DNA of 64,000 bases from the NCBI GenBank assembly GCA_964016885.1, contig OZ024740.1, positions 277,884,001-277,948,000 on the forward strand. The letters are read 5' to 3'. Source of the DNA: Eledone cirrhosa. Taxonomy: Eukaryota. Numbering within the stretch: position 1 is the stretch's first letter; every line of letters starts with the position of its first letter. The notes under the pieces were generated by a model, which saw nothing but the letters and a program-made list of their open reading frames with translations, was not told the origin of the DNA and did no database searches. The translations under genes and the position numbers were made by a program. Below are positions 20,970 to 57,306 of the stretch, one piece after another.

Positions 20970-21250
20970 TATAATAAATAGAAATTGATTAACATATATA
21001 TAAATAAATATAAACATGAATAATCACAGGAGATAATTTTTACTGTGATTTTACTGTGATTTCTCCTGTGATTATTCATGTTTATATTTATTTATATATA
21101 TGTTAATCAATTTCTAGTTATTATAAAATGCTCGGACCTACAAAATCTTTGAGCTTATTTTCCGGGCGATATGGCGCACGCCGTTTAGGCATGACACCCA
21201 CAATTTCGATTTGGATTGAATTCATTTAATTTATCTAATTTTGGATATAG
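20970..21250 (+). mobile_element. Fold-back insertion (64 bp arms at 20970-21033 and 21062-21125) with one-sided extension, probably PLE-derived
   Basis: Near-perfect inverted repeat next to (TA)n; the loop contains a duplicated TTTTACTGTGAT. Confidence 0.6.
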
Positions 21251-21336
21251 ATATATAGATATATATCAACTTTTCAAATAGAAGTCGAAGTTGAAAGGTA
21301 TGTCGAATCTATCTATTTATAAGACTGTTTATATTG

Positions 21337-21402
21337 TATTTTGTCTGAAGAAGGCATAACATATTTTTAATATGATATCCCTGAAATATATATAATGAAA
21401 TA
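21337..21402 (+). ncRNA. Minimal type I hammerhead ribozyme motif
   Basis: UAUUUUGU-CUGAAGA-(AGG..ACAUAU/AUAUG..CCU)-GAAA-UAUAUAUA^AUGAAAUA; second copy at 39488-39552. Confidence 0.7.
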
Positions 21403-21938
21403 AATATGGTTTTATAAATATAGTTTCCATTTATTTAATATCGATATATATATATATATATATATTTTTTTTTTTTTTGTCGGTATCGATTTTACAAATA
21501 ACTACAAATCGAACATGTCGACAACTACATATATTATTATTTACCACCCCAGTCTGAAATTTCCTGAAACATCTGTATAAATTTATTCATTGTTAATCTG
21601 CCTCAATGGAATTCTGAATTATTCATAAAAATACACTATTTATATATATATTACTACCATTATACCCACAGATTATCTCACCTGATTTTACAACATCAGA
21701 CAGTTGAGTGCTAGCTGTATATACAAATGTATATATACACACATATTGACATAAGTGTACTTCATACAGACGCACAGCTATGCAAACAAACAGTTAATTA
21801 GCATATTTCTCACTCTGCCAAACTCTCCACTCTCTCTCCTGCCTCTCTATCTCTCTTACACACACGCACAAACATCACACATACACACACACACATATAT
21901 ATTTATATAGTGCACTCCTTTTTGTTTTGTTCCTTGCC

Positions 21939-22006
21939 TATATATATATATATATATATATATATATATATATATATATATATATATATATATATATATA
22001 TATATA
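21939..22006. repeat. (TA)n microsatellite, representative of several dozen TA/CA/GA/CATA tracts
   Basis: Perfect dinucleotide run. Confidence 0.95.
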
Positions 22007-22415
22007 TGTATATATAAAACATGCTATCTCATACATTCATATTCTTAGGCATACGAGTTGCCTTAGTATTACAAATTCCCTCATACACATATAGGCGCTT
22101 TCATCTATATTCACACGCCATTTAGGGTCACATTTATTTTCCTCGCTTGTTCCTATGTACAGATACAGAAACTAACATAACAGCCTAACATATTAACAAA
22201 CCCATCTTCCTCATTAACCATCCAATTAGATCAAATATGTGGCTGTGTCTATACATACATATATATATATATATGTGTACGTGTGTGTGTGAGTGCGCGC
22301 ATGTGTTTCTCTCAATCTCTCACTCTTTCTCTCTCTCTCTCTCTCTCTCTCTATATATATATATATATATATATATATATATATATATATATATATATAT
22401 ACATATATAAACTAA

Positions 22416-22792
22416 ATAATTGATTCTAGTTTATGCACAATACCAGCAATTTGGAGGGTAGAGGAAAGTCGATTAAATCGACCCCAGTACGTTACTGGTG
22501 CTTTATTTTATCGACCCCGTAAGGATGAAAGGCAAAGTTAACCACGGCGGGATTTGAATTCAGAACGTAAAGGCCCTTAACTCTATTCCTCTAAGTATCA
22601 CCCTATATATAAACTAAATAATTGTTTCTACCTTTGGCCAGGAATTATCCCAGTACATTACTGGTTCTTTATTTTATCGACCCCAGAAGGATGAAAGGCA
22701 AAGTTAACCTCTGCGGGATTTGAACTCAGATCACAAAGGGCCGTAACTCTATGTTGCAAAGCATGGTGTCTGGCGCTCTATTGATACTGCCA
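22416..22792 (-). mobile_element. Two adjacent SINE family S copies
   Basis: Two cores (22490-22570 and 22658-22740); TATATAAACTAAATAATTG is repeated in front of each. Confidence 0.88.
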
Positions 22793-53321: not shown

Positions 53322-53833
53322 TCCCGCCAGGGTTAACTTTGCCTTTCATCCTTATGGGGTCGATAAAATAAAGTACCAGTAATGCAGTGGGTAATTGCTG
53401 GCCTTGTGCCTAAAGTAGAAACAATTATTATTATTGTTAAGGGCGGTGGATTGGCAGTATCAGTAGAGGGTCGGACGCCTTGCTTTCCAGCATAGTTACG
53501 TCCCTTTACGATCTGAGTTTAAATCCCGCCGAGGTTGGCTTTGCCTTTCATCCTTACGGGGTCGATAAAATAAAGTACCAGTAATGCACTGGGTAATTGC
53601 TGGCCTTGTGCTTAAAGTAGAAACAATTATTATTATTGTTAAGGGTGGCAGTATCGGTAGAGGGTCTGACGCCATGCTTTGCAGCAAAGAGTTACGGCCC
53701 TATATGGTCTGAGTCTCGTCGAGGTTAACTTTGCCTTTCATCCTTACGGGGTCGATAGAATAAAGTACCAGTAATGCACTGGGGTAATTTCTGGCCTTGT
53801 GCCAAAAGTAGAAACAATTATTATTATTGTTAA
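53322..53833 (+). mobile_element. Tandem trimer of SINE family S
   Basis: Three copies, each followed by ATTATTATTATTGTTAA. Confidence 0.92.
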
Positions 53834-56009
53834 CCTTTTCAGTGTTTGTATCTCAGCCAATTATTTAAGCCTTTTGCTTTGAGCCGTTTTGGTTATTATT
53901 GGATACATTGCTATTATCAGATTGATTTTATAGTGTTCTTTTGAATACTGTGTTCTAGTTCCCTGTTAAATATTCAGTTTTGTGTGGGTTAGCGCCATGT
54001 GGGTTAGCGCATGTAAACTCAAAAGGAAATTGATAAATTCGGTAAAATCTTGGGAGTTAATATTCATTAGAATATCTTTCTGAAATAGGTTACAAATACG
54101 GGGAAGCACTTTAAACTATAATGCACCTGAGACAATTTCAACCCTTAGGCTCTTCGCATCATATTTTATACTGACACAATACGATTTGTGATTTTCTAGA
54201 AATATATTAGAGAGATGATTATTATATACCAACTGTTGAAGTTTTATCTCAGATCAGTTCTTATTGAGCAGTCCCAACATCAATTACAATTCGTTTATGT
54301 TTTGAGAGAAACTACTATTACAAATACGTTGTGTTCATAGTCATATTTGTCTACACATATTCCGTCAAATGTCTCTCAGTGTGTACATAGGACTATGTTC
54401 AGGTTCAAACAGGTATGTTGATAACTTTTCTTATTGATCAACTGTATAACTTCGAACAGTATATTTGTGGCGGATTGTTTACTGTAACAATAAAGGAGGA
54501 TATATGTGCCTGCACGATATACGTAATGGGAGTACATAATTTATACAGCGATTTTGATTGTTTTCCTTAACGAAACATTAATGTAACAAAATAGAATGTA
54601 AGATAAAAATGAAGAAAGCAATTACTTTTAAAGTAGATAAAACAACATTCTTTTGGAAAATATTGTTGTTAGAAAAGAATAATCAAAGTAAGAACGTTTG
54701 TGTGTGTGTGTGTGTGTGTGTGTGTTTTGAGGAGACATTTATAAGGACATCCGAAGGTCAGATGTGGTCGTGCTCTTGTGCTGCTGATTATCTGCTGAAC
54801 ACTTGAAAAAACACGCCTATATGGTTTGATGGGCTTCGGTTGATTTTTTCTTTCATAGACATGTGAACATTGCCTTTTCAATATCTGAATGATACCCTCT
54901 AATTCTCGTTTTGGATATAGCTGTCTTTAAAGAATACCGATATATGTTTCATTAGATATTCAAATTTGTTGCTTCATATTTTACTAAATTCTTTCATTGT
55001 TAAGCGTGATCCTTTAATGAAGCTCTCAATATTGTGCTTTTATATTGTGAACGAGTAGTATGTTACTATATATTCCAGTGTGTTGACGTATTTCAAGCAT
55101 TGTAGCACCATATGATATCTTACAAAAATCTTACATAGAACTTAACTTGTTTAAGCAGATAAAACTTTTGTTTGATGTTATCTATTCTCACAATATTTTT
55201 TAACTGCCCTAAAAGGTTAGATAGACAAAAAGAATGAATCTTTGAAGCTGAATTAACGAAAGCGTTGTTGCTTTCTGTAATGTATTTAACATTATCTCAG
55301 GTATTAAAAATACTCAATGTTATCTATCAACTACTATTGTTTTCCTTTATTAATGTAATTCTTAAATCACGTTGTTACATTTGTGCAGCATTTCAAAGTA
55401 AACTTTTACGGAAAGATTCAAATCTTTGAGAACAATCTTTCTCGGAATTATATATATATATTTTTTTCACATTTTGGATTATATTTTTAATCAGAGAGTT
55501 TATTACTTTTTTAAAGGGAGAAGATTATTATTACTACTGGTGCTGTCAAAAATGGCAACAGTTTTTAACTGATTTTAACAAATGGTGCTTCCGTTCAAAA
55601 TTATGCATGACATTGATAAATTACTTTCTAAAATATTACACTGTGATCTTAGTCAAATAGCCTAGAATGTAGCCCCTAGACCAATAGTTCGTAAATGAGA
55701 TAGCACTTACTGCCTTCCGAAAATGGTATATCAGCACATAGATATTCATAACATTTTACGAGCGATTTAATACTTGTTATAAAAATTTAATTTCAAATGA
55801 TGATATTATAATAATAATAATATTTGTCACAAAACGTTACAGATTTCGTTAGAACTATATTAGTGACCTGTTGAAATGATTCATAAGCAAGTTTTAAAGC
55901 TGAAATGAAAATGGCGAAACAACGAAGAATACCAGGCTTAGATTATCCCTTATGCACTTTTACACAAGCCTTTTGAATTCTTAATTGTTTCGATTAATTC
56001 TATTATAAG

Positions 56010-56080
56010 AAATAATTGTTTCTACTTTTGGCACAAGGCCAGCATTTACCCAGTACATTACAGGTACTTTATTTTATCGA
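56010..56080 (-). mobile_element. 3' fragment of SINE family S
   Basis: ATAATTGTTTCTAC...TTTATCGA. Confidence 0.8.
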
Positions 56081-56084
56081 ATAA

Positions 56085-56444
56085 ATTGAACCACATTTAG
56101 TAGATATATCCGAGGCTCCTACGGAACTACAAGTTGAGTTATTTGAGTTGGGGGAAGATAGTATCCTCAAATCCCTTTTTGACGCTAAAAAGGATCCCAT
56201 AGAAATCTGGTCAAATGCTGTTGAATATCCATGCCTACGAGAGCATGCATGCCGTTTACTTTCCTGCTTTGGAAGTACTTACTGCTGCGAGTCAACATTT
56301 TCTCTCATGACCAAAATTAAAACTACTTTAAGAACGCAAACCACAGATGCTCATTTAGAGGATCAATTAAGGCTGCGCGTTACGAAGCTTGATCCAAATA
56401 TTCAATTACTTTCAAGCAAGAAACAAATGCAAATATCCCACTAA
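56085..56444 (+). pseudogene. C-terminal dimerisation region of a hAT (SPIN/GTF2IRD2/Buster-like) transposase
   Basis: AP.ELQ.EL.EL, YP.L...A..LL..FGSTY.CE..FS.M..IK...R......HLE..LR, P.I..L...KQ.Q.SH*. Confidence 0.88.
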
Positions 56445-57099
56445 CTTGAATTTTCCATCGGATTTTAAAATTATTTTACGTATTGTTGCTATGTTAGTTT
56501 TTTTTACCTTAATATTATTATTTTTCTATCGTATTTCTTTATAAATATGTGAATACAGAAATATTTTATATTGTAACTTTTATGTTAAATAATAAATAAA
56601 TGACTATAAAACTATACAAAAACTATAATAATTTCACAAAAGTCGCATTTATAGGTAATATATTCATTGACAATAGAATGAGTACATCAAATTATAAAGA
56701 AAGGTGCTGTTAAAAGATTTTAGGCGAAACTGTCTCTACGCTTTATTTTACCATTAATTCCATGGTGAGCTTCAAAAGTATTTCCATTTTAAAAGATGAA
56801 AGGTATGTACGTGTATGAAAGTGTATGTGTCTGTGTAATTTATGCGTACGCTTGTGAATATGGTTATACAAAGAATGTAGGTGCAATGTCATGTATAAAT
56901 GAATATATATAGTAGATATTTGCATTTTAAGTATATGTGTACGTGTATATATATATATATATATATATATATATATATATATATATATATATACGTACAT
57001 GGCATTGCACCTACATTCTTTGTATAACCATATTCACAAGCGTACGCATAAATTACACAGACACATATATATATATATATATATATATATATATATATA

Positions 57100-57306
57100 A
57101 CGAAGGAGGTGTTGTAAGGAACCAGGTGGACCATAACGCACCTGAGTACTCTATACTTAGGTTAGTAGAGTGGGTAATAGGAAAATGTTCAAGACCCCGA
57201 CGGCATACCTCAAGCCGTTTCGACGGCTATTTCAGGCCTAAACTAGTCCGGTAATAGCCGTCGAAACGGCTTGAGCTCTGCCGTCGGGATCTTGAACATG
57301 TTCCTA
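57100..57306 (-). mobile_element. Fold-back element family A, copy 5
   Basis: Same tail, with arms around an imperfect central hairpin. Confidence 0.85.

Follow-up and report, generated by a model that had tools for sequence, protein, structure and literature searches.

How PLEs acquire their inverted ends and the accompanying tail has been named as an open question (PMC8557442, PMC11167929), and the published proposals invoke either resolution of an intermediate by the endonuclease (PMC8557442) or self-priming on antisense RNA (PMC3846280). The canonical unit combines arms arranged head to head, a tail on one end (which may be either), partial tandems, a hammerhead-like motif in the pLTR and target duplications (PMC3846280; PMC8557442), and all these features recur in the TA-flanked insertions of Eledone cirrhosa described here, the hammerhead-like motif as a candidate one. 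However, the tails are 59-140 bp long, as compared with the published 30-40 bp, miniatures devoid of an ORF dominate, the target duplications measure about 14 bp instead of the 8-10 bp reported in PMC3846280, and one family (termed A) exhibits a sharp 5' wall accompanied by an extra G.

The closest experimental system is that of Poseidon PAc, for which it was found in vitro that both strands of an AT-rich target are cut and extended from two internal starts on the RNA that bound the tail, and a dimer was predicted (PMC11167929). The units analysed here likewise have two putative internal starts bounding the tail, a tail downstream of the pLTR and an AT-rich target, but the tail of Poseidon PAc lies inside the ORF, whereas that of family A lies in the 5' leader. 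Moreover, PMC11167929 reports start sites that do not differ between the strands and no homology between the RNA start and the cut DNA, and draws no link from its pair of sites to opposite ends of a single insertion or to the inverted arrangement; the two-ended model favoured below, on the other hand, requires one site per end and a pairing of 2-3 nt. A second parallel is twin priming and dual priming of L1, in which, according to PMC2837659, the 3' overhang of the second nick primes an inverted cDNA and the product is flanked by target duplications. L1 uses its second site opportunistically and its arms seldom overlap, while here the second site is fixed, the arms overlap and this outcome is the rule instead of a by-product. 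An L1-type twin priming product, which would have an inverted 5' part, separate arms, a variable second site and a poly(A) end, was considered and rejected on these grounds, as the second site is fixed and the arms overlap in most copies; the units resemble twin priming, but not the L1 product. The architecture is known from published PLEs and the proposed mechanism is the part that we add; in the literature searched (most subscription journals and the older Penelope reviews lay outside it) we found no earlier statement of two-ended PLE priming.

Fold-back insertions of the window and their ORFs

The whole stretch of DNA analysed (64,000 nucleotides, hereafter the window) contains the following features, with the strand in brackets and a dot where none is assigned.

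20974..21246 (.): family D fold-back; tail-less arm on the left, paired part 20974-21121, tail ~21122-21246, no ORF linked
29883..33300 (+): family N long insertion; inverted tail-less pLTR 29883-30195, direct pLTR 32929-33241, tail 33242-33300
30003..32720 (+): 5'-truncated PLE ORF of family N (open frame); first 64 codons within the inverted arm, Neptune/Nematis-type linker
34949..37872 (.): family E fold-back; tail ~34949-35014, microsatellite-rich arms, right arm end at 37872, no ORF linked
37307..37543 (.): miniature of family A (putative Hydra-clade PLE); tail ~37307-37386, paired arms 37388-37543
37915..38126 (.): miniature of family B (Hydra-like); tail ~37915-37980, arms 37982-38126 with a minimal hammerhead-like motif
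40812..40953 (.): diverged relative of family A; tail ~40812-40889, short arms 40890-40953
44970..45103 (+): half insertion of family A; tail-bearing arm alone, without a partner, TA at either side
45154..45912 (-): family B tail-less end (at 45154) and endonuclease fragment (GIY-YIG, 45484-45912)
46198..47324 (-): second ORF fragment of family N, broken; DNA 90% identical to 31688-32733
48585..48954 (.): family F fold-back, old and diverged; tail ~48585-48726, short arms, no ORF linked
48971..49169 (.): relative of family A in the opposite orientation; arms 48973-49087, tail ~49088-49169
50006..50569 (.): family C fold-back (relative of N); tail ~50006-50064, arms of ~250 bp at 50066-50569
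57099..57304 (.): relative of family A; tail ~57099-57178, arms 57180-57304

A first-pass annotation had described ten fold-backs in TA, belonging to at least five sequence families. All ten sites indeed possess an inverted pair, TA-rich ends and an unpaired tail on one side, but the one at 29879 is not a simple fold-back: its 2.7-kb loop contains the ORF, and the unit represents a long insertion of the ordinary type, one of whose pLTRs is inverted. Four sites (37308, 40812, 48971 and 57100) form one family group, and the ten represent seven families (A, B, C, D, E, F and N), with C and N related to each other. Self-BLAST of the window, run after masking of microsatellites, revealed local hairpins at 20974-21121, 37388-37543, 37982-38126, 48973-49087, 50066-50569 and 57180-57304 as well as pairs separated by long loops, 29883-30195 with 32929-33241 (98%) and 35018-35251 with 37635-37872 (97%). 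The short, diverged pairs at 40812 and 48585 were missed by self-BLAST and found by eye, and the latter was found again by a later test. The tails measure 59 bp at 29879 and 50005, ~66 bp at 34947 and 37915, ~80 bp in the family A group, ~125 bp at 20970 and ~140 bp at 48585. In the miniature at 37307..37543 the tail arm extends to the 60-nt wall described below and is followed by an extra base, and in the family F copy at 48585 the right arm ends ~9 nt short of the usual family boundary. A copy of family A is nested within a TA run of the right arm of the family E fold-back.

Linkage to PLE ORFs, claimed earlier for two families, was found for A, B, C and N. Family A possesses an intact ORF of 719 aa (L031:7080-9236), comprising a PLE-type reverse transcriptase together with a GIY-YIG endonuclease at the C-terminus; its closest named match has PF01541, and a Pfam scan of the family A and B proteins gave no match. 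The tail of family A continues into the 5' leader of this ORF (L031:6909-7080), and is therefore internal RNA. The Hydra clade is marked by DKT in place of DKG, an RWK motif, a CxCX5C linker, CxxC and CxH, the lack of CCHH and a short element (PMC8557442). The family A translation, inspected by eye, contains DKT, an RWK-like motif (as RWR), the CxCX5C linker, CxxC and CxH, and no CCHH, and the element is short and targets (TA)n, also as in the Hydra clade; family A thus matches the features of that clade and is assigned to it provisionally, on motifs. The GIY-YIG fragment at 45484-45912 has the Hydra-type CxCX5C linker together with CxxC, and the tail-less end of family B lies ~330 bp downstream of it; for B and C the ORF linkage was established by tblastn. 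Family N gave a weak RVT_1 match (E 0.00025, below the cut-off), and in its 905-aa frame a CX2-5CxxC linker and a CCHH-type endonuclease were read by eye, which is a Nematis feature, but common to Neptune; the label Nematis-like comes from the first-pass annotation and is taken here as provisional for N and C. No ORF continuous with the arms was found for D, E and F in 25, 30 and 25 loci of 3 kb, respectively, and these families are counted as putative PLEs on account of their architecture. Partial tandem or inverted order of pLTRs with a one-ended tail was observed in the 5.8-kb insertion L031/L032, in the window insertion at 29883-33300 and in further copies; the tail sits on the short inverted arm in the former and on the long arm in the latter.

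Putative canonical hammerhead cores were recognized by eye in B, C, E, F and N. In family A a three-way junction is predicted, which is not unusually stable given its z of 1.2, and a variant core, departing from the canonical letters unlike that of the Hydra clade, is present in all eight long copies. No hammerhead was present among the 150 Rfam matches listed at E up to 1, which were of microRNA type only, lay on microsatellites and hairpins, and were all under the gathering score. We rejected the idea that the turn results from hammerhead cleavage: the cut predicted for family A lies ~20 nt from the boundary, with the wall at 60, and in family B the turns scatter past the motif.

Copies across the genome, fixed ends and target sites

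The lopsided TA-flanked hairpins are genuine scars of PLE insertion, present in thousands of copies across the genome. Six families were examined in further copies, and exact tail matches run to thousands for four of them; the exact pattern for family D matched the window copy only, but a DNA search yielded 1,423 candidates, of which 40 were scored. A detector independent of motifs found 45 inverted partners in 214 kb, as compared with none for shuffled queries. Among the 100 matches listed of 10,747 to family A arms, inspected by eye, 45 continue into the tail, 55 into TA and none elsewhere, so that the earlier statement of a family-fixed TA boundary for the arm without a tail stands, the arm ends being not random. 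In family A, which was sampled by exact patterns, the partner arm ends precisely at the boundary TA in 64/69 copies, and 119/122 tail ends adjoin TA, the remaining 3 being internal. The same rule of a fixed boundary was seen in B, C and E and in D and F. There are exceptions with a tail at both ends (L163 and 2/69 family A copies) or at neither (C1:25978879/25978979). The six-letter tail end said to be common to the ORF-linked families is present in the window copies, but it is not a family trait, since it was found in only 1/17 family B ends. The stems are 55-250 bp long, and the sampled sequence contains roughly one hairpin every 10 kb.

Among 94 copies with interrupted flanks, 14 show a target duplication of 11-16 bp, whereas 200 shuffled pairings gave 2.6 on average and 8 at most. 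A duplication-like match is lacking in 76 of the 94 informative copies, and some 4 of the 18 matches are artefacts of the allowed end shift. The lengths lie near 14 bp, and in one locus (L181) the duplication consists of 14 bp of non-repeat DNA. Slippage of TA may erase such duplications. Where the target ends in other letters (L022, L098), the end without a tail is displaced by a few bases, to a position where the RNA can pair with these letters, as expected of a primed start.

Arm lengths and the 5' wall of family A

The first-pass annotation held that the turn point varies, which is true of families B, C and E, but not of family A. In 58/69 short fold-backs of the latter the end of the longer arm lies at a distance of 54-64 nt from the boundary, and none of the 138 arm ends lies past 64 nt. 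No equally sharp wall was found in B, C and E, whose arm lengths are rough, as the banded measurement was blunted by subfamily indels. The wall site fits the initiator consensus, and an AT-rich box lies 29 nt upstream. The base beside position 60 is a sense-strand G in 11 of the 14 unexplained cases with template T (the 14 count two loci twice), and an extra G is also present at 6/8 tail-less arm ends. Both arms thus end where the sequence resembles an initiator, frequently with one additional G, and the site is likely to be the start of a capped RNA. Contigs of another run, X1, drop about twenty-fold across the wall; RAD runs are uninformative on this point because of a restriction site at L031:6856. 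The tail-less arm is as long as or longer than its partner in 43/69 copies and longer by at least 10 nt in 10, although the bias is not significant (10 vs 4, P 0.18), and either arm could have been shortened by later deletions.

Proposed priming at both ends and the alternatives

We propose that each unit is a single PLE insertion, probably made by reverse transcription primed at both ends of a staggered cut in the TA repeat. The GIY-YIG endonuclease would nick both strands about 14 nt apart to give two 3' overhangs ending in TA; a first reverse transcriptase would begin copying the RNA from its distal fixed site (the tail end) and a second one at the proximal fixed site (the boundary), 59-140 nt upstream of the former, each start involving a pairing of 2-3 nt between the last bases of the target and the RNA. 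Both cDNAs would proceed to the 5' end of the RNA and be joined head to head, bluntly or via 1-2 nt of shared sequence, and the tail would be the stretch copied by one cDNA only. The usual template in family A would be its own capped mRNA, starting 60 nt upstream of the proximal site, so that most of its products would be two short run-off cDNAs, like retroviral strong-stop DNA, while long and tandem copies may result from priming at a downstream pLTR or from a template jump of the cDNA. The architecture, the fixed ends, the distribution of arm lengths, the target duplications of some copies and the ORF linkage are observed, and the order of events, the dimer, the cap and the use of one RNA or two are parts of the model that we infer; when arms were compared with each other over 3,215 bases, 5 variants were shared and 23 single, too few to tell one RNA from two. 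The ~14 bp duplications and the start shifts that follow the target fit two cDNAs made from both 3' overhangs at two fixed RNA sites, as in L1 twin priming and in line with the published in vitro data. That the fold-backs are direct products of PLE integration, as was suggested in the first-pass annotation, is supported by the ORF linkage of four families and with junctions that are nearly all different.

A bolder version, which we regard as possible but rather doubtful, is that the normal PLE route is programmed two-ended priming by a dimer, with a 14-nt stagger, strong-stop-like run-off of 60-140 nt, some 100,000 miniature hairpins and a telomerase-style stutter at the start site that adds microsatellite repeats, in which case PLEs might build the very repeats they target and a relative of telomerase would be tied to microsatellite growth. 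The copies amount to thousands of young minimal products whose geometry separates models of the mechanism, and the two-ended model makes predictions for the in vitro system: one start site per end, a stagger of ~14 nt with 3' overhangs, pairing of 2-3 nt and run-off at the capped end. Wherever transcribed, the hairpins would supply plentiful double-stranded RNA, a possible substrate for ADAR editing or siRNA as suggested in the first-pass annotation.

The mechanism put forward earlier, in which the cDNA from the tail end snaps back to serve as its own template and synthesis of the new strand halts at the fixed TA, or the strand is re-cut there by the endonuclease, appears unlikely. Tight junctions (gap 0 or -1 in 37/69) would suit it, as would the tail being ascribed to resolution by the endonuclease (PMC8557442) and the ability of the Poseidon enzyme to cut its own pLTR region (PMC11167929). 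However, a strand that copies the tail-bearing cDNA must be the shorter arm, and this shape, with the tail arm longer by at least 4 nt, was found in 14/69 family A copies, as against the 43 mentioned above; several full-length tail-less arms stand beside a tail arm of 1-33 nt, and in L018 the tail-less arm is the longer one (33 vs 60) and an intact 12 bp target duplication is present. It also runs counter to the existence of palindromes without a loop (59/59, three times), to the movement of the tail-less end with the last bases of the target and to the extra G at tail-less arm ends. For bdelloid Penelope elements it has been proposed that the RNA primes itself on an antisense transcript, and such self-priming would make the head-to-head join before integration; it is the published reading of palindromic junctions (PMC3846280), and fold-back copies can give RNA of both senses, but it predicts neither target-dependent start shifts at both ends nor a wall at a sense initiator-like site with a sense-strand extra G, and we consider it very unlikely.

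It is also improbable that one normal cDNA was inserted and that host repair or DNA template switching added the inverted arm later, or that deletions within palindromes reshaped the arms. Templated, end-joining-like junction insertions of 1-29 nt (26/69) and the partnerless half insertions (44970-45103 in the window and many others) point in this direction, but such a process gives no reason for one fixed second-arm base in tens of copies of six families and does not explain a second arm that holds sequence absent from the first. Copying of a few non-autonomous master hairpins as a whole, MITE- or SINE-like, would account for the high copy number and for the junctions that recur (54/60 and 59/59, three times each); it is, however, highly improbable, as 62 copies comprise 55 junction classes, 59 of 63 inner sequences are distinct and the ends are unequal, unlike terminal inverted repeats. 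The identity of a MITE or another cut-and-paste element was rejected, since the ends differ by the tail and the junctions are diverse. Finally, palindromes beside long TA runs assemble poorly, and there is a gap near L023, but fold-back of reads or faulty assembly is so improbable as an explanation that it may be neglected, in line with the earlier judgement: point changes distinguish the arms, the ends recur in contigs of a second organism, and raw Illumina reads of other samples hold loose ends in TA for each of the two fixed sites (2,907 and 7,398 reads in X20, 2,596 and 8,050 in X21) as well as opposite-strand joints, with family C behaving likewise.

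Fold-backs in the window and their abundance

All ten fold-backs reported by the first-pass annotation (at 20970, 29879, 34947, 37308, 37915, 40812, 48585, 48971, 50005 and 57100 of the window) are real, as judged by masked self-BLAST and reading by eye. The former found local hairpins at six sites and long-loop inverted pairs at two; those at 40812 and 48585, read by eye, are short, diverged inverted pairs. At each site one arm continues as a tail of 59-140 bp, unpaired and followed by TA, and the other arm adjoins TA directly. The window is full of repeats with many TA runs, and other repeats in it are:

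2911-8265 and 8719-14278: on the minus strand, a side-by-side pair of nearly identical non-LTR elements with two ORFs each, with AP-type endonuclease and RT, which we take to be L1/Tx1-like
16104-16299, 22481-22793, 26548-26902, 38921-39106, 43211-43402, 44478-44630, 50650-50858, 53321-53816 and 57961-58132: dispersed repeat of ~190 bp (self-BLAST), SINE-like in size and often in short tandems
21337-21442 and 39488-39592: 106-bp repeat with a TA end and a minimal hammerhead-like motif at its start (by eye), likely another end of a Penelope-like element (PLE)
56085-56444: transposase-like C-terminal fragment, presumably of hAT type
59771-60523: what we take to be a basic repetitive ORF
62383-64000: degenerate tandem array at the window's end

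Palindromes of another kind, absent from the first-pass annotation and with a central TA run or two element ends facing each other, were observed at 17022-17582, 48086-48561, 56824-57067 and 58591-58865, and in the flanks of one sampled locus (L026).

In 214 kb, a detector independent of family motifs picked up 45 inverted partners that adjoin TA runs, with a tail of 40-170 bp in 24 cases; shuffled queries gave none. Seventeen of the 45, some of which may be ends of neighbouring elements, fall in 150 kb of stretches not picked for any element (four beside the window, which spans 277,884,001-277,948,000 of contig OZ024740.1, and 11 at 10-Mb steps on that contig). Extrapolated from this one contig to the genome sampled (3.0 Gb, 1,796 contigs), this would give fold-backs in the order of 100,000. 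The architecture holds in the window and extends genome-wide. Stems of 55-250 bp, as dense as this, would serve as substrates for ADAR or Dicer wherever they are transcribed.

Exact tail-pattern matches number 5,461 in family A, 2,943 in B, 7,692 in C and 2,552 in E, with 0 for each reversed control; for families D and F, 40 of 1,423 and 40 of 515 candidates were scored. Sampled loci were the first places listed on OZ024740.1, except for D and F, where the best matches to the window copy were taken. Among the first 100 of 10,747 matches to family A arms, read by eye, 45 continue into the tail, 55 into TA (3 of these with a shift of a few bases) and none elsewhere. Short fold-backs make up 69 of 129 family A tail anchors, the remaining 60 being half insertions, long copies, diverged subfamilies or complex loci, and in 64 of the 69 the partner arm stops at the boundary TA. 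Families B, C and E obey the same rule, as do D and F wherever a partner could be located within 1.5 kb (about half of the loci), which bears out the earlier proposal of a boundary fixed in each family. Symmetric exceptions, with two tails or none, were seen at L163, L172/L173 and 25978879-25979012 of OZ024740.1.

Read or assembly artefacts are excluded by independent data. Two other samples, with the same species label as the best-matching run, provided raw Illumina reads, which were mapped to the natural long family A copy in locus L031. TA loose ends occur there at exactly two places, L031:6909 (2,907 and 2,596 reads) and L031:6989 (7,398 and 8,050 reads); the same reads contain opposite-strand joints, and both ends are visible in contigs of a second organism. 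For family C, TA loose ends mark the boundary in 2,433 and 2,166 raw reads, and the tail end, hidden there by a restriction site, is visible in contigs.

Elements behind the families

Loci L031/L032 contain a whole family A insertion with TA at both outer ends, in the order TA, tail, 830-bp inverted arm, partial direct copy, pLTR with tail, intact 719-aa ORF, and a last pLTR that stops at the boundary, followed by TA. From this layout, the tail is the RNA directly downstream of the pLTR; in family A this places it in the 5' leader, 92 nt ahead of the start codon. The ORF bears features listed for the Hydra clade (compared by eye); its homologues number >2,000, at about 40% identity, and nearly all lack a name. 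In the window and at five loci, Hydra-like endonuclease fragments have family B ends downstream of them, and families N and C are linked to a Neptune/Nematis-type ORF; no linked ORF was found for D, E and F at the sampled loci. Beside the family A insertion, L031:801-4157 holds an RTE-like element that also makes up a large inverted pair, TA-rich in its centre. At L029, L039 and L037 two arms, each with its tail, share one orientation; the first arm ends near the place, about 60 nt from the boundary, where family A arms stop (the wall) and continues as ORF sequence; this looks like a template jump building partial tandems.

The architecture as such is already known for PLEs: the fold-backs match the layout described in the accessible parts of PMC3846280 and PMC8557442, an inverted 5'-truncated copy with a tail on one end. 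The variant found here, with long tails, dominance of miniatures, a 5' wall with an extra G and a 14-bp duplication, discriminates between models of integration.

Priming at both target ends or snap-back

The first-pass annotation attributed the fold-backs to snap-back of a single cDNA, whose copied strand would be nested in the tail-bearing strand. Arm lengths are compatible with this in 14 of 69 family A fold-backs, but in 43 the tail-less arm is as long as the other or longer; it is longer by at least 10 in 10 copies and shorter to that extent in 4, a bias that is not significant. Both arms, read inwards from the flanks, are in cDNA orientation. As the best reading, we consider it fairly probable that two cDNAs are primed at both target ends, at two fixed RNA sites, so that each arm would grow from its own target 3' end. 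Besides arm lengths, this reading is favoured over snap-back by target duplications, target-dependent end shifts and newly made junctions. Duplications of 11-16 bp occur in 14 of 94 copies with interrupted flanks (200 shuffles: mean 2.6, maximum 8); the clean ones are 12-16 bp, mostly 14, one of them in non-repeat DNA, while 76 copies lack one, and of the 18 matches about 4 are artefactual. At L022 and L098, which have an unusual target end, the tail-less end is displaced a few bases, to the point where RNA and target pair, and the junctions, mostly blunt or with 1-2 shared bases, fall into 55 classes among 62 copies and were thus made anew. Duplication together with priming at both ends would imply 3' overhangs at the target, for which the accessible part of PMC2837659 offers a comparison case.

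For the anole Poseidon element, the accessible part of PMC11167929 describes cutting and extension of both strands in vitro, two internal start sites bounding the tail and a predicted dimer, and does not there connect these to inverted insertions. It also reports that start sites did not differ between the strands and that RNA start and cut DNA share no homology, two statements that sit awkwardly with two-ended priming. Our literature search, thin on subscription journals, found no prior statement of two-ended priming for PLEs.

The family A wall and repeat runs at the tail

The turn point, described earlier as variable, is indeed spread over a wider range in families B, C and E, but of the 69 short fold-backs of family A, 58 have a longer arm that stops 54-64 nt from the boundary. 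None of the 138 arm ends lies beyond 64 nt, within a search span of ~120, and the commonest is position 60 (23/138). The wall is not a block to copying in the sequence, since long copies pass straight through. Its site matches the initiator consensus, with a second initiator candidate 4 nt upstream and an AT-rich box 29 nt upstream. In arms that stop at 60 and are followed by a base other than the partner's, this base is a sense-strand G, against a template T, in 11 of 14 cases, two loci being counted twice (P ~0.0007 by hand, assuming the three other bases equally likely); among the 100 listed of 15,713 wall-reaching matches, whose loci partly overlap these cases, G occurs 12 times and A 4 times. 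An extra G of this kind is known to arise when the cap is copied. Given the initiator-like site and the extra G, the short products are probably run-off cDNAs copied from the mRNA of the element itself.

A hammerhead-like fold is predicted at L031:6800-6900, and the wall sits in its long stem II loop, so an mRNA starting there would be without half of the putative ribozyme. This fold has a very long stem II, with the presumed transcription start in its loop, and two conserved core positions change together in most long family A copies; a literature search found no published account of such a fold.

Between TA run and tail start, family E has a TG run in 8 of 34 copies (e.g. L179, L184, L194, L200), the far end being plain TA in 6/6, and family B a GA run in 5 of 29 (e.g. 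L113, L117, L119), the far end being plain TA in 2/3. Since a duplicated target should show at both ends, the runs probably came from stuttering at the start site, possibly of a telomerase-like kind at priming; alternatively, the element may have inserted at the border of a compound microsatellite. The TA run holding one family A copy totals 112 bp (window 37267-37615) versus 58 bp in the mirrored arm (35268-35325), a single case hinting at repeat gain on insertion.
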